Positions 1-51,316 of a DNA stretch of 64,000 nt are shown here, piece after piece. The notes beneath the pieces are model-generated. The model ran no database searches. It saw nothing but the letters and a program-made list of their open reading frames with translations, and was not told the DNA's origin. Numbering within the stretch: the first letter of the stretch is position 1; each line of letters begins with the position of its first letter. Both the position numbers and the translations under genes were made by a program. The DNA is from Escherichia coli (GTDB lineage: Bacteria; Pseudomonadota; Gammaproteobacteria; Enterobacterales; Enterobacteriaceae): assembly GCF_003334405.1 (NCBI RefSeq), contig NZ_QOWM01000001.1. One strand, given 5' to 3'.

Positions 1-719
1 AAATCGTTGCCGATAATATTCACGGTGAAACCGGACTGGATGGCCCGGTATTCGAGCCGCTGACCCGCCAGGCAGAAAGCACTCATGCGGTGAAATATAT
101 CATTGATACCCTGATGGCAAGCGATGGCGATATCACTCTGGTGCCGGTTGGTCCGCTTTCAAATATCGCGGTGGCAATGCGTATGCAACCCGCGATCCTG
201 CCCAAAATCCGTGAAATTGTGCTAATGGGCGGCGCTTACGGTACAGGCAACTTCACGCCATCTGCCGAGTTCAACATCTTTGCCGACCCGGAAGCCGCAC
301 GCGTAGTGTTCACCTCCGGCGTTCCATTAGTGATGATGGGCCTCGATCTCACCAACCAGACCGTTTGCACCCCGGACGTGATTGCTCGGATGGAAAGGGC
401 AGGCGGCCCCGCCGGAGAGCTGTTCAGCGACATCATGAACTTCACTCTCAAAACGCAGTTCGAAAACTACGGCCTTGCTGGCGGCCCGGTGCACGACGCC
501 ACCTGCATCGGTTATCTGATTAACCCTGATGGCATTAAAACCCAGGAGATGTACGTCGAAGTGGACGTCAACAGTGGCCCTTGCTATGGGCGTACCGTCT
601 GCGACGAGCTGGGCGTTCTTGGCAAGCCCGCCAATACCAAAGTCGGCATCACTATTGATACAGACTGGTTCTGGGGATTAGTCGAAGAGTGCGTGCGCGG
701 CTACATCAAAACCCATTAA
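1..719 (+). CDS. rihB: pyrimidine-specific ribonucleoside hydrolase RihB (YeiK), 3' portion; 5' end lies upstream of the window
   Basis: ORF 90..719 continues in frame to the window start ([20 protein letters not shown]...); nucleoside hydrolase sequence recognised from memory. Confidence 0.85.
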
Positions 720-818
720 GTGTTGATAACAAGCCGGGCCGGTATCGCAAGATGCAGGCCTGGCTATTTCTGATGGGCAGAAAGCCGTCGCCCAATATGA
801 CATGAAGAGATAATCACT

Positions 819-2138
819 ATGGATGTCATGAGAAGTGTTCTGGGAATGGTGGTATTGCTGACGATTGCGTTTTTACTGTCAGTAAACAAGAAGAAGATCA
901 GCCTGCGTACCGTTGGCGCGGCGTTAGTGTTACAGGTCGTGATTGGCGGCATTATGCTTTGGTTACCGCCAGGGCGTTGGGTCGCTGAAAAAGTCGCTTT
1001 TGGCGTGCATAAAGTGATGGCGTACAGCGACGCGGGTAGCGCATTTATCTTCGGTTCTCTGGTCGGACCGAAAATGGATACCTTATTTGATGGTGCAGGA
1101 TTTATCTTTGGTTTCAGGGTGTTACCGGCAATTATCTTCGTCACCGCGCTGGTGAGTATTCTCTACTACATCGGTGTGATGGGGATTTTAATTCGAATTC
1201 TCGGCGGTATCTTCCAGAAAGCATTAAATATCAGCAAGATCGAGTCATTCGTCGCGGTCACCACCATTTTCCTCGGGCAAAACGAAATTCCGGCAATCGT
1301 CAAACCCTTTATCGATCGTCTGAATCGCAATGAATTATTTACAGCGATTTGTAGTGGCATGGCCTCGATTGCTGGTTCGACAATGATTGGTTACGCCGCA
1401 CTGGGCGTGCCTGTGGAATATCTGCTGGCGGCATCATTAATGGCGATCCCTGGCGGGATCTTGTTTGCCCGCCTGTTAAGCCCGGCAACGGAATCTTCGC
1501 AGGTTTCCTTTAATAACCTCTCTTTCACCGAAACACCGCCAAAAAGCATTATTGAAGCCGCTGCGACAGGGGCAATGACCGGGCTGAAAATCGCCGCAGG
1601 TGTGGCAACAGTGGTGATGGCATTTGTTGCAATAATTGCGTTGATTAACGGTATTATCGGCGGCGTTGGTGGCTGGTTTGGTTTTGAACATGCCTCGCTG
1701 GAGTCCATTTTAGGTTACCTGCTGGCTCCACTGGCGTGGGTGATGGGTGTGGACTGGAGTGATGCGAATCTTGCCGGGAGTTTGATTGGACAGAAACTGG
1801 CAATAAATGAATTTGTCGCTTATCTCAATTTCTCACCCTATCTGCAAACGGCTGGCACTCTCGATGCTAAAACTGTGGCGATTATTTCCTTCGCGTTGTG
1901 CGGTTTCGCTAACTTTGGTTCTATCGGGGTGGTGGTGGGGGCGTTTTCTGCGGTTGCGCCACACCGTGCGCCGGAAATCGCCCAGCTTGGTTTACGGGCG
2001 CTGTCGCGGAAACTGTATCCTTCAAGAAAGCTATATACCAGGCCCGCCATAAAACCATCGTCAGCACCAAAACTGTCTACTGTCGTATGCGCTGGCGCGG
2101 TCAGCAAAAATTGTTCTCCATCCTTTTCGCTGCAATAA
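819..2138 (+). CDS. nupX: NupC-family concentrative nucleoside transporter NupX (YeiJ); C-terminal ~45 aa atypical
   Basis: 439-aa ORF with CNT/NupC-like membrane protein sequence; the tail after the conserved LGLRAL motif is hydrophilic and overlaps yeiI on the opposite strand. Confidence 0.75.
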   Translation: MDVMRSVLGMVVLLTIAFLLSVNKKKISLRTVGAALVLQVVIGGIMLWLPPGRWVAEKVAFGVHKVMAYSDAGSAFIFGSLVGPKMDTLFDGAGFIFGFRVLPAIIFVTALVSILYYIGVMGILIRILGGIFQKALNISKIESFVAVTTIFLGQNEIPAIVKPFIDRLNRNELFTAICSGMASIAGSTMIGYAALGVPVEYLLAASLMAIPGGILFARLLSPATESSQVSFNNLSFTETPPKSIIEAAATGAMTGLKIAAGVATVVMAFVAIIALINGIIGGVGGWFGFEHASLESILGYLLAPLAWVMGVDWSDANLAGSLIGQKLAINEFVAYLNFSPYLQTAGTLDAKTVAIISFALCGFANFGSIGVVVGAFSAVAPHRAPEIAQLGLRALSRKLYPSRKLYTRPAIKPSSAPKLSTVVCAGAVSKNCSPSFSLQ

Positions 2139-2983
2139 ACTGACTCATCGGGCAAATAAACAAACAGTTGCTGAACACCTTGCTGATGCAATGCATTCAC
2201 TGCGGTATTACGGTCAGCATCGCTGGTGATCGCCTGTCCCCATAAAATTTCCAGCTCCGGTAAAGTGGGTTTCAGGGTGTGAATATGCGCCAGCCAGTGT
2301 TTGATTTTGCCCGCTTTGAATTCTGAAACGGTATCGACAAACACCGGGATTTCATCAGCGAGGGTAAAGACCCATTCCAGCGCCTCGGCTGTCAGGTTGC
2401 AATCAGCCAGTACCACGCCCGCATGACGAAGTAAATCGCGCGACCCGTTCAGTAGTTGCGGTGTCAACTGTTCCAGCAGATGGGTATCGTTAATCGCCAG
2501 CACGGTTTGATCGTCTCGATTGGCAATTGCCAGATACGTCGATGTGCTTTGACCATGCAAACGAACGCAGCCGGAGACATTCACGCCGGCACGGCGCGTT
2601 TCTTCCAGGAGCATTTCGCCATAAAAGTCATCGCCAATCACTGAAAGCAAATGGACGTCACGGCCTAACAGCGCCAGATTGTGGGCGATGTTGCGTCCCA
2701 CGCCGCCCGCTGAGCAATGAATTGTACCGGGATGAGAAGCCGATTGCGGGTAACGGATATCCGCCATCCCGCGAATATCCATATTGATTGTCCCCACCAC
2801 TACGCAGTATTCCTGCTCGGTGAGAATGTAACCTTTGCCTTTAATCCGGCCTTTGCGCATTAAATCCATAATATGCGCCGCAACGCGCGAACGGCTGATT
2901 TGCAGCATGTCCGCAATTTCGTTCTGCTGAATCAGCGGGTTACGCCGTAAAATTGCAAGGATCTCCTTTTCCCGGTTATTCAT
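1838..2983 (-). CDS. yeiI: ribokinase-family sugar kinase with N-terminal HTH (YeiI)
   Basis: 381-aa ORF; N-terminal HTH-like segment, ribokinase-type motif VDSFGADDGFMAGL near the C-terminus. Confidence 0.8.
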   Translation of the reverse strand: MNNREKEILAILRRNPLIQQNEIADMLQISRSRVAAHIMDLMRKGRIKGKGYILTEQEYCVVVGTINMDIRGMADIRYPQSASHPGTIHCSAGGVGRNIAHNLALLGRDVHLLSVIGDDFYGEMLLEETRRAGVNVSGCVRLHGQSTSTYLAIANRDDQTVLAINDTHLLEQLTPQLLNGSRDLLRHAGVVLADCNLTAEALEWVFTLADEIPVFVDTVSEFKAGKIKHWLAHIHTLKPTLPELEILWGQAITSDADRNTAVNALHQQGVQQLFVYLPDESVYCSEKDGEQFLLTAPAHTTVDSFGADDGFMAGLVYSFLEGYSFRDSARKPSWAISGARCGATAENAPTTTPIEPKLAKPHNAKEIIATVLASRVPAVCR

Positions 2984-2985
2984 CT

Positions 2986-3843
2986 TCAGGCTACCGCTTT
3001 TTCAGTTTGTTGCGCTTTCAGCCAGGCGATCTCTTCTGCCCAGATATCCGGGTTGATGGTTTCGAGGATCAGCGGAATGCCGTCGAAACGGTCGTCCTGC
3101 ATGATCCAGCGGAACGCATCATGACCGATATTGCCTTCACCGAGGCTATGATGGCGGTCAACGCGGCTGCCAAAGGTGCTTTTCGCATCGTTAAGGTGCA
3201 TCCCGCGCAGATACTTAAAGCCGACAGTACGGGCAAAATGCGCGAATGTTTTCTCGCATTCGGCTGGAGTACGCAAATCATACCCGGCAGCGAAAGCATG
3301 GCAGGTATCAATGCAGACGCCGACGCGGGATTTATCTTCCACGCCGTCGATAATCGCCGCGAGATGTTCGAATTTAAACCCTAAGTTACTGCCCTGACCG
3401 GCGGTGTTTTCTATCACCGCTGTCACACCTTGAGTTTTATCCAGCGCAATGTTGATGGATTCGGCAATACGCGCAAGGCAATCCTCTTCTGAAATCTGCA
3501 TCAGATGGCTGCCAGGGTGGAAGTTGAGCAAAGAAAGCCCCAGCTGTTCGCAACGCTGCATTTCATCTATAAAGGCATCGCGCGATTTTTCCAGAGCTTC
3601 AGTGACCGGATGTCCGAGGTTAATCAGATAACTGTCGTGGGGAAGAATTTGCGCCGATGTGTAGTGATATTTTTCACAGGCGGCTTTGAATTCATCGATG
3701 GTTTGCGTCGTGAGCGGTGCGGCACGCCACTGACGTTGGTTTTTGGTGAACAAGGCAAACGCGGTTGCGTCGATTTCGGCGGCGCGAATTGCGGCATTTG
3801 CCAGACCGCCAGCAGCACTAACGTGCGCTCCAATGTATTTCAT
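2986..3843 (-). CDS. nfo: endonuclease IV (AP endonuclease)
   Basis: 285-aa [16 protein letters not shown]..., length and sequence match Nfo. Confidence 0.95.
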
Positions 3844-3916
3844 GCGAGGACTCCTGTTAAACCCGCTGGAGGAAAACGGTAATGATAGCGGGTTAACAGG
3901 AGCAAGATGTAGTGGT

Positions 3917-4966
3917 TTATGCGATGACGCTTTGAATCACATAGTTAATCGCACCACCACCAACAATCAGCCAGGCAAACAGTACCAGTGCCATCAGCAG
4001 AGGTTTCGCCCCAGCTTTTTTCAGCGCGCTGACGTGAGTGGTCAGACCCAGCGCCGCCATCGCCATTGCCAGCAGGAAGGTATCCAGCGTTACCAGCATG
4101 TTCACCACGCTCTGCGGTAACAGGTGGAACGAGTTAAAGATGGCAACTACGATGAACAAGATGGCAAACCACGGAATAGTGATTTTGCTTTTCTCGCCGC
4201 TGTTCGCCCCAGACAGCTGTTTAACACGCGCCGCCAGCAGGATGAGGAACGGAGCCAGCATCATCACGCGCAGCATTTTGGAAATAACTGCTGCGTTTTC
4301 CGCATCCGGGCTGATGGCATGACCTGCCGCCACCACCTGCGCCACTTCGTGCACAGTAGAACCAATGTAGATACCGAAAGTTTCCGGACTAAACCATTGA
4401 GACATCAGCGGATATATCGCCGGGTAGAGGAAAATCGCGACGGTCCCGAAGATAACAACGGTTGCAACAGCCACGGTTACTTTACTGGCTTCCGCTTTCA
4501 CTACCGGCTCAGTCGCCAGTACCGCGGCAGCACCACAGATACTGCTACCGGCACCGATCAACCAGCTGGTGTGCTTATCCAGACCAAACACTTTCTGCCC
4601 CAGGAAGCAAGCCAGCAGGAAGGTACTGGACAGCGTCAACACGTCAATGATGATCCCACTGATACCGACATCGGCAATTTGCGAGAACGTCAGACGGAAG
4701 CCATAAAGAATGATACCCAGACGTAATAAATATTGCTTGGCAAACAGCACACCACCGTCACAGCTTTTCCAGATGTGCGGATAGATGGTGTTGCCTAAAA
4801 CCATCCCCAACAAGATTGCGAGGGTGAGGGCACTAAACCCGGCACCCGCAACCGCGGGAATGGAACCACCCCACAGGGCGACCCCGGTGATAACTGCACT
4901 CAGGGCTAACCCCGGAATAAAATGCCACAGTGTACGATGTTGTTTCTGTAAGGTGATATTCGTCAT
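3917..4966 (-). CDS. yeiH: UPF0324 inner membrane protein YeiH
   Basis: 349-aa hydrophobic ORF divergent from the LysR regulator yeiE. Confidence 0.85.
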
Positions 4967-5064
4967 AACCCTCTCCTTTAACCGGGCATAAGGTTACGAC
5001 TAACTGGTTTAAAAATAAAATTGATTATATATTTATAATTAATCTTTATAAGTGGTAAGCGACT

Positions 5065-5946
5065 ATGCACATCACCCTCCGGCAGTTGGAAGTTTTTGCA
5101 GAAGTATTGAAAAGTGGATCAACCACCCAGGCGTCGGTGATGCTGGCGTTGTCGCAATCAGCAGTGAGCGCAGCCTTGACCGACCTGGAAGGGCAGCTTG
5201 GCGTGCAACTGTTTGATCGCGTGGGGAAAAGACTGGTTGTTAATGAACACGGGCGGCTGCTCTATCCGCGTGCGTTGGCATTGCTTGAACAGGCGGTTGA
5301 AATCGAACAACTGTTTCGCGAAGACAACGGCGCGATTCGTATCTATGCCAGTAGTACCATCGGTAACTACATTCTGCCTGCAGTTATCGCCCGTTATCGC
5401 CATGATTATCCGCAGTTGCCGATTGAACTTAGCGTTGGGAATAGCCAGGACGTGATGCAAGCGGTGCTGGATTTCCGCGTTGATATTGGCTTTATTGAAG
5501 GACCGTGCCACAGCACTGAAATCATTTCTGAACCGTGGCTGGAAGACGAGCTGGTGGTTTTCGCCGCGCCGACTTCGCCGTTGGCCCGTGGTCCGGTCAC
5601 CTTAGAACAGCTGGCCGCTGCGCCGTGGATCCTGCGTGAACGCGGTTCCGGCACGCGGGAGATTGTCGATTATCTGTTGCTGTCACATTTACCGAAGTTT
5701 GAGATGGCGATGGAATTAGGTAACTCCGAGGCAATCAAACATGCGGTGCGTCATGGGTTGGGAATTAGTTGCCTGTCGCGACGTGTGATTGAAGATCAAT
5801 TGCAGGCAGGCACATTAAGTGAAGTTGCGGTCCCTCTGCCGCGCCTGATGCGTACGTTGTGGCGTATACATCATCGGCAAAAACACCTTTCCAACGCGCT
5901 ACGGCGCTTTCTGGACTATTGCGATCCCGCAAATGTGCCGCGTTAA
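5065..5946 (+). CDS. yeiE: LysR-family transcriptional regulator YeiE
   Basis: 293-aa ORF with N-terminal HTH ([14 protein letters not shown]...) and LysR substrate-binding domain. Confidence 0.9.
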
Positions 5947-6150
5947 GTTGCTGTACAAGAACATGCTGGTGCTGTGTCGATTTCGTGACGCAGCGCCTTC
6001 AGCATGCATTCGCCAGAAAAGAGATTGGCTGCTTTACTTATAATCCCTGGGCGATCATGAAGGTGTCTTATAACCGTGTATTTCTGCCGGAAGGATTGCC
6101 AATCGTCTGCTACAATCGCGCCTCATTTTTAAGATGGATAGCATTTTTGT

Positions 6151-7620
6151 ATGGTTTCCGAAACTAAAACCACAGAAGCGCCGGGCTTACGCCGTGAATT
6201 AAAGGCGCGTCACCTGACGATGATTGCCATTGGCGGTTCCATCGGTACAGGTCTTTTTGTTGCCTCTGGCGCAACGATTTCTCAGGCAGGTCCGGGCGGG
6301 GCATTGCTCTCGTATATGCTGATTGGCCTGATGGTTTACTTCCTGATGACCAGTCTCGGTGAACTGGCTGCATATATGCCGGTTTCCGGTTCGTTTGCCA
6401 CTTACGGTCAGAACTATGTTGAAGAAGGCTTTGGCTTCGCGCTGGGCTGGAACTACTGGTACAACTGGGCGGTGACTATCGCCGTTGACCTGGTTGCAGC
6501 TCAGCTGGTCATGAGCTGGTGGTTCCCGGATACACCGGGCTGGATCTGGAGTGCGTTGTTCCTCGGCGTTATCTTCCTGCTGAACTACATCTCAGTTCGT
6601 GGCTTTGGTGAAGCGGAATACTGGTTCTCACTGATCAAAGTCACGACAGTTATTGTCTTTATCATCGTTGGCGTGCTGATGATTATCGGTATCTTCAAAG
6701 GCGCGCAGCCTGCGGGCTGGAGCAACTGGACAATCGGCGAAGCGCCGTTTGCTGGTGGTTTTGCGGCGATGATCGGCGTAGCTATGATTGTCGGCTTCTC
6801 TTTCCAGGGAACCGAGCTGATCGGTATTGCTGCAGGCGAGTCCGAAGATCCGGCGAAAAACATTCCACGCGCGGTACGTCAGGTGTTCTGGCGAATCCTG
6901 TTGTTCTATGTGTTCGCGATCCTGATTATCAGCCTGATTATTCCGTACACCGATCCGAGCCTGCTGCGTAACGATGTTAAAGACATCAGCGTTAGTCCGT
7001 TCACCCTGGTGTTCCAGCACGCGGGTCTGCTCTCTGCGGCGGCGGTGATGAACGCAGTTATTCTGACGGCGGTGCTGTCAGCGGGTAACTCCGGTATGTA
7101 TGCGTCTACTCGTATGCTGTACACCCTGGCGTGTGACGGTAAAGCGCCGCGCATTTTCGCTAAACTGTCGCGTGGTGGCGTGCCGCGTAATGCGCTGTAT
7201 GCGACGACGGTGATTGCCGGTCTGTGCTTCCTGACCTCCATGTTTGGCAACCAGACGGTATACCTGTGGCTGCTGAACACCTCCGGGATGACGGGTTTTA
7301 TCGCCTGGCTGGGGATTGCCATTAGCCACTATCGCTTCCGTCGCGGTTACGTATTGCAGGGACACGACATTAACGATCTGCCGTACCGTTCAGGTTTCTT
7401 CCCACTGGGGCCGATCTTCGCATTCATTCTGTGTCTGATTATCACTTTGGGCCAGAACTACGAAGCGTTCCTGAAAGATACTATTGACTGGGGCGGCGTA
7501 GCGGCAACGTATATTGGTATCCCGCTGTTCCTGATTATTTGGTTCGGCTACAAGCTGATTAAAGGAACTCACTTCGTACGCTACAGCGAAATGAAGTTCC
7601 CGCAGAACGATAAGAAATAA
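6151..7620 (+). CDS. lysP: lysine-specific permease LysP (APC family)
   Basis: 489-aa ORF MVSETKTTEAPGLRRELKARHLTMIAIGG... Confidence 0.95.
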   Translation: MVSETKTTEAPGLRRELKARHLTMIAIGGSIGTGLFVASGATISQAGPGGALLSYMLIGLMVYFLMTSLGELAAYMPVSGSFATYGQNYVEEGFGFALGWNYWYNWAVTIAVDLVAAQLVMSWWFPDTPGWIWSALFLGVIFLLNYISVRGFGEAEYWFSLIKVTTVIVFIIVGVLMIIGIFKGAQPAGWSNWTIGEAPFAGGFAAMIGVAMIVGFSFQGTELIGIAAGESEDPAKNIPRAVRQVFWRILLFYVFAILIISLIIPYTDPSLLRNDVKDISVSPFTLVFQHAGLLSAAAVMNAVILTAVLSAGNSGMYASTRMLYTLACDGKAPRIFAKLSRGGVPRNALYATTVIAGLCFLTSMFGNQTVYLWLLNTSGMTGFIAWLGIAISHYRFRRGYVLQGHDINDLPYRSGFFPLGPIFAFILCLIITLGQNYEAFLKDTIDWGGVAATYIGIPLFLIIWFGYKLIKGTHFVRYSEMKFPQNDKK

Positions 7621-7641
7621 GTTTCCTCCCTTCCTTGCTAA

Positions 7642-7667
7642 GCCCTCTCAACCGAGAGGGCTTTTTC
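7642..7667 (+). terminator. Rho-independent terminator of lysP
   Basis: hairpin gccctctc-aacc-gagagggc followed by ttttt immediately after the lysP stop. Confidence 0.7.
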
Positions 7668-7718
7668 AATTCCATTTCCCTGACAAATCATGCGGATATA
7701 AAATTTAACATTTGGATT

Positions 7719-7743
7719 GATAATTGTTATCGTTTGCATTATC
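7719..7743 (+). promoter_or_regulatory. putative Fur box in the cirA promoter region
   Basis: gataattgttatcgtttgcattatc resembles the Fur consensus GATAATGATAATCATTATC, about 170-195 nt upstream of the cirA ATG. Confidence 0.5.
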
Positions 7744-7913
7744 GTTACGCCGCAATCAAAAAAGGCTGACAAATCAGAGGCTGTTCCGGCTTTCTGGGAT
7801 GATCACCTGCATAAAAAATAAGTCCACCGCGATGCTGCCGTACGCAAGGGGACGTGAAGAAGATGTGAGCGATAACCCATTTTATTTTCGTAGTTACCTC
7901 ATGGAGATATGGA

Positions 7914-9905
7914 ATGTTTAGGTTGAACCCTTTCGTACGGGTCGGGCTGTGTTTGTCCGCTATTTCTTGTGCATGGCCTGTGTTAGCGGTCGATGATGAT
8001 GGCGAAACGATGGTTGTCACTGCATCTTCCGTGGAACAAAATCTTAAAGATGCACCTGCCAGTATCAGCGTCATTACCCAGGAAGACCTGCAGCGAAAAC
8101 CGGTACAGAATCTGAAGGATGTCCTCAAAGAAGTGCCTGGCGTACAACTGACGAACGAAGGGGATAACCGTAAGGGCGTTAGTATTCGTGGTCTGGACAG
8201 CAGCTATACCCTGATTCTCGTCGACGGTAAACGCGTGAACTCCCGCAATGCCGTCTTCCGCCACAATGATTTCGATCTGAACTGGATCCCGGTCGATTCC
8301 ATCGAACGTATTGAAGTGGTCCGTGGCCCGATGTCGTCGCTGTACGGTTCCGATGCGCTCGGCGGTGTAGTGAATATCATCACCAAAAAAATCGGTCAGA
8401 AATGGTCGGGTACCGTTACCGTCGATACCACCATTCAGGAACATCGCGATCGCGGTGACACCTATAACGGTCAGTTCTTTACCAGTGGACCATTAATTGA
8501 TGGTGTGCTGGGAATGAAAGCTTACGGCAGCCTGGCAAAACGTGAAAAGGATGACCCGCAAAACTCAACGACCACCGATACCGGAGAAACGCCGCGTATT
8601 GAAGGATTCTCCAGCCGCGACGGCAATGTCGAATTTGCCTGGACACCGAATCAAAATCACGATTTTACTGCCGGATACGGTTTCGACCGTCAGGATCGTG
8701 ATTCCGACTCGCTGGACAAAAACCGCCTGGAACGCCAGAACTACTCCGTCAGCCATAATGGGTGTTGGGATTACGGCACCAGCGAACTGAAATACTACGG
8801 TGAGAAAGTCGAGAACAAAAACCCTGGCAACAGCAGCCCGATAACTTCCGAAAGCAATACGGTCGACGGCAAATACACGTTGCCGCTGACGGCGATTAAT
8901 CAGTTTCTCACGGTTGGCGGTGAATGGCGTCACGACAAACTTAGCGATGCGGTGAACCTGACCGGGGGAACCAGCTCCAAAACGTCTGCCAGCCAGTACG
9001 CGCTGTTTGTGGAAGATGAATGGCGGATCTTCGAGCCGCTGGCGCTGACGACCGGCGTGCGTATGGACGATCACGAAACCTACGGTGAACACTGGAGTCC
9101 GCGTGCCTACCTGGTTTATAACGCCACCGACACCGTAACGGTGAAAGGGGGCTGGGCGACGGCATTTAAAGCACCTTCTCTGTTGCAACTTAGCCCTGAC
9201 TGGACGAGCAATTCCTGCCGTGGCGCATGTAAGATTGTGGGTAGCCCGGATCTGAAACCAGAAACCAGCGAAAGTTGGGAGCTGGGGCTTTACTACATGG
9301 GTGAAGAAGGCTGGCTGGAAGGGGTTGAATCCAGCGTTACCGTTTTCCGTAACGATGTGAAAGATCGTATCAGCATCAGCCGTACGTCTGACGTCAACGC
9401 TGCACCGGGCTACCAAAACTTTGTTGGTTTTGAGACGGGCGCTAACGGACGGCGCATACCGGTATTTAGCTACTACAACGTTAACAAAGCTCGTATTCAG
9501 GGCGTGGAAACCGAACTGAAAATTCCGTTCAACGATGAATGGAAACTGTCGATCAACTACACCTACAACGATGGTCGTGATGTCAGCAACGGCGAAAACA
9601 AACCGCTATCCGATCTGCCGTTCCATACTGCTAACGGTACGCTGGACTGGAAACCGCTGGCGCTGGAAGACTGGTCATTCTATGTTTCTGGGCACTATAC
9701 CGGGCAGAAACGCGCCGACAGCGCGACGGCTAAAACACCGGGCGGTTATACCATCTGGAATACCGGCGCGGCCTGGCAGGTGACTAAAGACGTCAAACTG
9801 CGCGCAGGCGTGCTGAACCTTGGCGACAAGGATCTCAGTCGTGACGACTACAGCTATAACGAAGACGGACGTCGTTACTTTATGGCAGTGGATTATCGCT
9901 TCTGA
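7914..9905 (+). CDS. cirA: TonB-dependent catecholate siderophore / colicin I receptor CirA
   Basis: 663-aa ORF with signal peptide and TonB-dependent receptor sequence. Confidence 0.95.
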
Positions 9906-29640: not shown

Positions 29641-29813
29641 AAAGTTCTTTGACGTTGCATTGCTGGCGTAAATGTCAGCAATGCAGCATTTCCTCACGAT
29701 TCTCCTTTGACGATCGCACTTTTTGCTCGTTATGATGGCGTCGCTAGCCTCAGTAAATCCTTACTCCGGCGGTGCGCAACCCGTGCGCGTGAACCACTAT
29801 CTGAATGCTCATC

Positions 29814-50133: not shown

Positions 50134-50241
50134 ATATTCATCCCTGAAATGTATTAATGAAATAAACGATATTTTACGCGCAATAAATGTTTGGCGCATT
50201 AGTTGTTTGAGCGAAAAATATCTGGAAAGCAGATCACAGTA

Positions 50242-50327
50242 AATAAAAAAACCTGCTGGTGAGGCAGGTTCTTTTATTTACTATTTTCAGGCCTAACACC
50301 ACAGCCTGTGCAACATCGTGTTCCAAC
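50242..50327 (-). ncRNA. putative Orz-type antitoxin sRNA, copy 1
   Basis: minus-strand promoter (-35 ttgcaa 50357-62, -10 tataat as plus attata 50334-39), ~85-nt transcript ending at hairpin 50250-50270 plus U-run; 5' end complementary to zor-1 5' UTR (50474-50493). Confidence 0.5.
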
Positions 50328-50565
50328 GAACGAATTATAACCATGGCTGGACCCCGTTGCAATTAAGATAATGAGATTTATAATCCAGACCGTTGGGACG
50401 TTGCGCCGGATCGAACCTATTTCAAGTCCTGGCTACCGGACGGGTGGTGCTGCAGGTGGTGCCCTGATCCGGAGTGCAACATCGTGGTCCAACATACGTA
50501 AACCAGTATCGACAGGCAGTGTAAGGGTAAGGTGCTGGTGTTGCGCTCCTTAATAAGGAGAGCGG

Positions 50566-50655
50566 ATGGACACGCTGACACAAAAGTTAACCGTGCTCAT
50601 TGCTGTACTGGAGCTATTAGTAGCTCTGTTACAGTTGATTGATTTGTTGAAGTAA
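50566..50655 (+). CDS. 29-aa Zor-like type I toxin peptide (MDTLTQKLTVLIAVLELLVALLQLIDLLK), copy 1
   Basis: SD aggag 6 nt upstream; plus promoter -35 50357-62 and -10 tataat 50379-84 gives a ~175-nt 5' UTR; terminator hairpin 50679-50701. Confidence 0.7.
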   Translation: MDTLTQKLTVLIAVLELLVALLQLIDLLK

Positions 50656-50851
50656 CGGGCAAATTGAAACGCATCTAAGGGGGAAAACCGCTTCCCCCTT
50701 TAATAAAATGATTACTGTTTTTATTAATTCATCATATAACTCATGTTTATTTATAAGTTCATCGATTTTATATTCAACGCACCATTTGACCGGGATGTGA
50801 ATATTTATGGTGGGCTATTGGCAAAAAATATCTGGAAAGTAGATCGCAGAA

Positions 50852-50935
50852 AATAAAAAAACCTGCTGGTGAGGCAGGTTCTTTTATTTACTACAGTGAC
50901 GCTAACTTGCTGATTGTGCAACATTTCGTACCAAC
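50852..50935 (-). ncRNA. putative Orz-type antitoxin sRNA, copy 2
   Basis: same architecture as copy 1 (-10 as plus attata 50942-47, -35 ttgcaa 50965-70, terminator 50860-50880); 18-nt stretch gcaacatttcgtaccaac matches zor-2 5' UTR at 17 of 18 positions. Confidence 0.5.
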
Positions 50936-51173
50936 GAATAAATTATAACCATATCCACACTCCATTGCAATTCAGTGAATGAGATTTATAATCCTGCCCG
51001 TTGGGAGGTTGTGCCGGATCGGACCAATTTTAAGTCCTGGCTGCTGGACGGGTGGTGCCGCAGGCGGTGCCCTGATCCGGAGAGCAACGTTTCGTACCAA
51101 CATACGTAAACCAGTATCGACAGGCAGTGTAAGGGTAAGGTGCTGGTGTTGCGCTCCTTAATAAGGAGAGCGG

Positions 51174-51263
51174 ATGGACACGCTGACACAAAAGTTAATC
51201 GTGCTCATTGCCGTACTGGAGTTATTAGTGGCTCTGTTACGGTTGATTGATTTGTTGAAGTAA
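51174..51263 (+). CDS. 29-aa Zor-like type I toxin peptide (MDTLTQKLIVLIAVLELLVALLRLIDLLK), copy 2
   Basis: SD aggag 6 nt upstream; -10 tataat 50987-92; terminator hairpin 51287-51309. Confidence 0.7.
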   Translation: MDTLTQKLIVLIAVLELLVALLRLIDLLK

Positions 51264-51316
51264 CGGGCAAATTGAAACGCATCTAAGGGGGAATACCGTT
51301 TCCCCCTTTAATAAAG

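Follow-up and report, generated by a model that had tools for sequence, protein, structure and literature searches.

Slipped mispairing between short direct repeats is a textbook route to deletion in Escherichia coli. Deletions of this type were reportedly described in lacI by Albertini et al. (1982), and the deletions that arise between short direct repeats are said to have been reviewed by Lovett (2004). The present locus concerns two convergent genes, nupX and yeiI. In K-12, NupX is a low-efficiency transporter of uridine and cytidine, and the same strain also carries NupC and NupG (PMC11241209); the function of YeiI is reported as uncharacterised (PMC9061257). The reference proteins, namely NupX of 416 residues (WP_000382966.1) and YeiI of 362 residues (WP_001065016.1), are carried by K-12, NCTC9100 and P13-6, where the two genes are separated by a spacer of 106 bp holding REP palindromes.

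In the window, i.e., the whole stretch of 64,000 nucleotides of E. coli DNA that was analysed, the arrangement is different. In the six-frame ORF list, the nupX ORF extends over positions 819..2138 on the plus strand (439 aa) and the yeiI ORF over positions 1838..2983 on the minus strand (381 aa), so that the two share positions 1838..2138, i.e., 301 nt. The first-pass annotation had reported this convergent overlap as about 300 nt, with coordinates that agree exactly with the ORF list, and had proposed three causes: the two 3' ends could have been brought together by a deletion or frameshift, sequencing could have introduced an error, or the genes could truly overlap. It had further reasoned that its suspicion would be refuted if reference proteins ended with the same residues and the same overlap were present in other genomes; the reference proteins end differently and their genes lie 106 bp apart. 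As developed below, slippage between two 10-bp repeats very probably produced a deletion of 281 bp and turned the locus into a pair of fused, most likely non-functional pseudogenes.

The 281-bp deletion and its endpoints

Compared by megablast with 5,426 complete E. coli genomes, the region 1500..2500 of the window (1,001 bp) gave a match in two pieces, which together extended over 1,282 bp in each of the best records. By direct alignment to the K-12 locus sequence (L001), window 1..2009 corresponds to positions 1002..3011 and window 1994..5000 to positions 3276..6282; because these two matches are offset, 281 bp of K-12 are missing from the window. The same gap was obtained by alignment to NCTC9100 and P13-6, the closest complete relatives of the window, and is thus present with respect to every close relative examined. 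Of the deletion or frameshift suspected of joining the two 3' ends, it is the deletion that stands, as one clean loss of 281 bp relative to all three strains. The 301-nt overlap is not a chance artefact of open reading frames but has a single structural cause, i.e., the missing 281 bp.

In the alignments to K-12, NCTC9100 and P13-6, codon 395 of nupX is joined to the antisense of codon 330 of yeiI, and both endpoints of the deletion lie inside a 10-bp direct repeat, ACGGGCGCTG. In K-12, the first copy is situated in nupX (codons 392-395; L001 2995..3004) and the second in yeiI (codons 327-330; L001 3276..3285); in the window, a single copy is retained at the junction, at positions 1994..2003. 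According to the repeat finder, no direct repeat in the 501-bp K-12 stretch is longer than this one, whose copies are spaced exactly 281 bp apart and which extends to 13 nt at 92% identity, with one mismatch. That ACGGGCGCTG is present twice in the reference explains why the two BLAST matches share window 1994..2009. Window 1..2003 aligns exactly to K-12 up to the repeat and, across the junction-spanning sequence GGTTTACGGGCGCTGTCGCGGAAAC, the flanks run exactly into nupX and yeiI on either side of the single 10-mer; this shared 10-mer is all that the junction holds, with no inserted sequence, filler DNA, IS end, FRT or lox scar. The locus thus displays what defines a microhomology deletion, namely a repeat at both ancestral endpoints and exactly one copy left. 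The deleted 281 bp consist of (i) 66 nt of nupX, corresponding to the last 21 codons and the stop, (ii) the 106-nt spacer, and (iii) 109 nt on the yeiI side, corresponding to the stop, 32 codons and the second copy of the repeat.

Occurrence of the allele and origin of the deletion

A 40-mer centred on the junction, which has only 25 nt per side so that neither half can seed megablast, had no match among the 5,426 complete RefSeq E. coli genomes, where a control 40-mer from the wild-type left endpoint matched 2,457. Likewise, a junction 35-mer had no exact match in GTDB species-representative genomes or in metagenome contigs. In the protein collection, the exact 439-aa chimeric NupX was retrieved from two NCBI draft contigs (359,949 and 232,701 bp), which could stem from one isolate or clone; the shorter one, JANJGP010000004.1 of assembly GCA_024592625.1, matches window 1..8138, with the junction, at 100% identity. 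In its exact 381-aa form, the YeiI chimera was not found in this protein collection, and yeiI has no gene call on the NCBI contig carrying the allele. Outside the deletion, the window is collinear with P13-6, from which it differs by 7 substitutions and one 1-base indel over about 62 kb (~99.99% identity). With the junction absent from the complete genomes and the remainder of the window nearly identical to P13-6, the allele is an isolated, recent and rare variant in an otherwise ordinary K-12-like background. Separately, some 2,070 records gave best matches to window 1500..2500 below 90% identity, i.e., 1,850 at 80-90% and 220 at 60-80%, which suggests strongly divergent alleles of this region across E. 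coli lineages.

That the junction is missing from every complete genome, that the allele has so far been met on draft contigs only and that the missing piece contains REP palindromes could be taken as signs of an assembly or sequencing artefact, in which case the true genome would have a normal nupX-spacer-yeiI arrangement. Such an error, already envisaged in the first-pass annotation as one of sequencing, is nonetheless very unlikely: assembler k-mers and reads are far longer than a 10-bp repeat, which is hence too short to mislead an assembler, and the chimeric protein is encoded on two contigs of different sizes. Moreover, the position of the junction exactly on the repeat, with one copy kept, is the hallmark of a biological deletion by slippage, and the flanks are clean, without ambiguous bases or other errors. 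Since the same allele is also carried by the two NCBI draft contigs, the deletion would appear to be a real variant of the strain rather than an assembly error.

Regarding how the deletion came about, we infer a misalignment between the two ACGGGCGCTG copies, most likely through replication slippage. The spontaneous deletion removed one copy of the repeat together with everything between the copies, i.e., 21 codons and the stop of nupX, the REP spacer, and 32 codons and the stop of yeiI. The reading frame of each gene now continues beyond the junction on the antisense strand of the other, up to a stop codon met by chance, yielding 44 and 51 foreign residues, respectively, as well as the 301-nt ORF overlap; NupX thereby loses a conserved hydrophobic C-terminal segment, and YeiI lacks the 32 conserved residues at the C-terminus of its PfkB domain. 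The REP palindrome of the reference spacer has 15-nt arms that are 93% complementary (repeat finder), and its motif, TGTAGGCCGGATAAGRCG, occurs in four other copies in the window against zero expected, i.e., as a repeated family. Modelled as single-stranded DNA, the deleted segment has a folding energy of -58.6 kcal/mol (z = -2.2, with 5 of 200 shuffled sequences folding equally well), its two ends being predicted to pair, with the REP hairpin mid-segment. Paired in this manner, the ends would bring the repeats together, which hints that the hairpin may have contributed to the deletion. Since a promoter and terminator scan found consensus sites neither in the reference spacer nor at the window junction, the loss of a canonical terminator cannot be claimed and the elements lost with the spacer are limited to the REP palindromes. 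Searched against Rfam at gathering thresholds, the whole window returned nothing in 1838..2138.

Around the locus, the 3' part of rihB lies upstream of nupX (1..719, plus strand), while nfo, encoding endonuclease IV, is intact immediately upstream of yeiI (2986..3843, minus strand; 285 aa), differing from K-12 by a single base, at window 3240. An intact paralogous cluster, psuK-psuG-psuT, is situated just upstream of the window start (locus sequence L004, 850..4061) and adjoins yeiL-rihB-nupX-yeiI. Elsewhere in the window, positions 50207..51315, between yehL and yehK, hold two tandem copies of about 500 bp that are 88% identical, each with one OrzO-P antitoxin RNA on the minus strand (Rfam; 50245..50320 at 99.9 bits and 50855..50928 at 88.8 bits); these copies correspond to zor-orz, an already known type I toxin-antitoxin pair that is not known from K-12. 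In the mglC-preA spacer, a REP/BIME cluster at 17977..18172 comprises an internal 80-bp repeat (91% identical), three copies of the REP motif and, at 18003..18080, a naRNA4 element (Rfam). A Peptidase-S11 RNA motif (Rfam, 72.8 bits) is positioned just upstream of pbpG, at 29729..29809. A 186-bp repeat, 89% identical between 58176..58361 and 61989..62174, is common to neighbouring paralogous DUF4132 genes (yehH/yehI-like). At 55932, the window has a T that is absent from P13-6, where the corresponding DUF4132 gene is annotated as frameshifted; it is apparently intact in the window.

The two chimeric proteins

Compared with the reference proteins, the C-terminal tails of both ORFs are foreign. 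The native part of nupX (codons 1-395; 819..2003, plus strand) encodes a protein identical to residues 1-395 of the reference, from which NupX first differs at residue 396: after ...APEIAQLGLRAL, it runs on as SRKLYPSRKLYTRPAIKPSSAPKLSTVVCAGAVSKNCSPSFSLQ, i.e., 44 codons and a stop (2004..2138, plus strand) that come from the strand antisense to yeiI codons 283-327, in place of reference residues 396-416, AAATLSNLMSATIAGFFIGLA. The atypical hydrophilic character attributed to this tail in the first-pass annotation is borne out, its mean Kyte-Doolittle hydropathy being -0.28 (8 K+R, no D/E and 5 Pro) versus +1.50 for the reference tail, which is devoid of charged residues; averaged over 19 residues, the hydropathy of the NupX C-terminus falls from +1.46 in the reference to -1.15. 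The lost segment is conserved, with 14 of 20 residues identical, at high posterior probability, to the solved Neisseria CNT (5L26), and the reference NupX aligns to 5L26 and to vcCNT (3TIJ) up to residues 415 and 414 of its 416, respectively. By the vcCNT topology, this segment is presumably the last transmembrane helix.

The window NupX retains the three Pfam domains Nucleos_tra2_N (PF01773), Gate (PF07670) and Nucleos_tra2_C (PF07662), the latter being covered over 1-198 of 213 positions only. Similarly, TIGR00804 is covered over 1-385 of 401 positions, versus 1-401 for the reference NupX, and the score of 476.8 bits, versus 499.5 bits for the reference, still passes the cut-off of 442. The matches to family models end at residues 395-396, i.e., at the junction, and a complete CNT C-terminal domain with the final conserved hydrophobic segment is lacking.

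As for YeiI, the native part (codons 1-330; 1994..2983, minus strand) combines an N-terminal winged-helix HTH with a PfkB kinase domain and is identical to residues 1-330 of the reference. It is followed by a foreign tail of 51 codons and a stop (1838..1993, minus strand) on the antisense strand of nupX, where KPSWAISGARCGATAENAPTTTPIEPKLAKPHNAKEIIATVLASRVPAVCR takes the place of reference residues 331-362, FAVACAAISRASGSLNNPTLSADNALSLVPMV. The suspicion that the yeiI C-terminus overruns its expected end proved right, by 19 residues beyond the 362-aa reference, as did the remark that the NupX tail is antisense to the ribokinase-motif region: the tail lies opposite residues 283-327 of YeiI, and among these is the PfkB signature DSFGADDGFMAGLV (residues 303-316, at 2036..2077 on the minus strand), which matches the PROSITE pattern PS00584. 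In both the reference and the window YeiI, this signature reads G-A-D-D, as opposed to G-A-G-D in pseudouridine kinase and ribokinases.

The YeiI equivalog model NF007416 covers the window YeiI over 1-339 of 362 positions, with a score of 746.2 bits that passes the cut-off of 561, and PfkB (PF00294) over 2-285 of 302. With the junction at residue 330, the matches end at residue 335 (Pfam PfkB) and 339 (NF007416), and the protein does not exhibit a full-length kinase domain including the C-terminal ~30 residues. Its closest solved relative is the E. coli pseudouridine kinase 7VKP (E = 1.3e-66), of which residues 278-306 align with the lost segment (12 of 29 identical). In ribokinase, the equivalent residues presumably border both the adenine pocket and the site for monovalent cations, and C-terminal residues of this enzyme have reportedly been implicated in adenine and monovalent-cation binding (Sigrell 1998; Andersson & Mowbray 2002). 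The window YeiI keeps the Asp equivalent to Asp256, the catalytic base of PsuK (PMC9061257).

Consequences and comparison with known systems

As each protein lost a conserved C-terminal segment, the NupX and YeiI products are both most likely inactive. Both score above the NCBIfam cut-offs and could therefore be named as intact by automatic annotation. The 439-aa "NupX" and the 381-aa "YeiI" are best regarded as pseudogenes that derive from a deletion, and neither as an unusual transporter tail nor as a novel overlapping pair. The phenotypic cost is probably small, with little physiological effect expected since the strain keeps psuK-psuG-psuT and may share the NupC and NupG of K-12. In essence, this is an ordinary, rare gene-inactivating mutation, where the genes and the class of event are already known and only the allele is rare. 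It is highly improbable that the deletion was selected, i.e., that the inactivation of both genes, or convergent transcription newly running into nfo-yeiI, was favoured, rather than arising by neutral decay. If it were so, a pyrimidine-nucleoside importer and the neighbouring regulator-kinase would have been lost at once, e.g., in relation to tolerance of a toxic nucleoside analogue, and the loss of the REP spacer might let transcription of nupX and of nfo-yeiI collide, thereby changing nfo expression.

The genuine overlap that had also been put forward initially would imply that the new tails or the antisense arrangement are used, for instance to let nupX and yeiI regulate each other through antisense. 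Both ORFs do stay open for 44 and 51 codons beyond the junction, but open antisense runs of this length are expected by chance at about 0.1 each (own estimate from (61/64)^n). Both proteins also remain above the family cut-offs, but their new tails are unrelated to the family models, whose matches end within a few residues of the junction, and NupX is deprived of a conserved hydrophobic segment. With the junction in 0 of 5,426 complete E. coli genomes, and normal genes separated by the 106-bp spacer, instead of the same overlap, in the closest relatives, a genuine and functional overlap is exceedingly improbable and finds no support. The nupX-yeiI overlap is a by-product of the deletion, without conservation, and does not constitute a new kind of gene overlap. 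A practically negligible chance is left to recombination or gene conversion with psuK-psuG-psuT, or to an engineered or IS-mediated deletion: psuT does lie ~3 kb upstream with 78.6% DNA identity to nupX, but conversion by psuT or psuK was rejected as the sequence on either side of the junction is that of nupX and yeiI, free of substitutions nearby, and not that of the paralogues, psuK and psuT are co-directional and therefore unable to supply a convergent junction, and the shared 10-mer bears no trace of an IS end, FRT or lox scar, or filler DNA.

Returning to a slippage deletion as the preferred reading, its products can be set against the respective known proteins. With K-12 NupX (YeiJ, P33021), a member of the CNT/NupC family, the window protein has in common residues 1-395 and the three Pfam domains, whereas the last 21 residues, conserved in the CNTs 5L26 and 3TIJ, are swapped for 44 hydrophilic and basic ones. 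With the reference YeiI (PRK09954 sugar kinase), it shares residues 1-330, the HTH and PfkB architecture and the PfkB signature, whereas the last 32 residues of the reference, which align with residues 278-306 of the paralogue PsuK (7VKP), are here replaced by 51 unrelated residues. As for the event itself, the locus represents a clean natural case of a single short-repeat deletion disabling two convergent genes. It resembles the E. coli short-repeat deletions of the lacI type in the perfect short repeat at the endpoints, the single copy kept and the lack of filler, as well as in the size of a few hundred bp and the palindromic DNA, here REP, between the repeats; there is no difference in kind, except that the repeats here belong to two convergent genes, so that one event truncates both.
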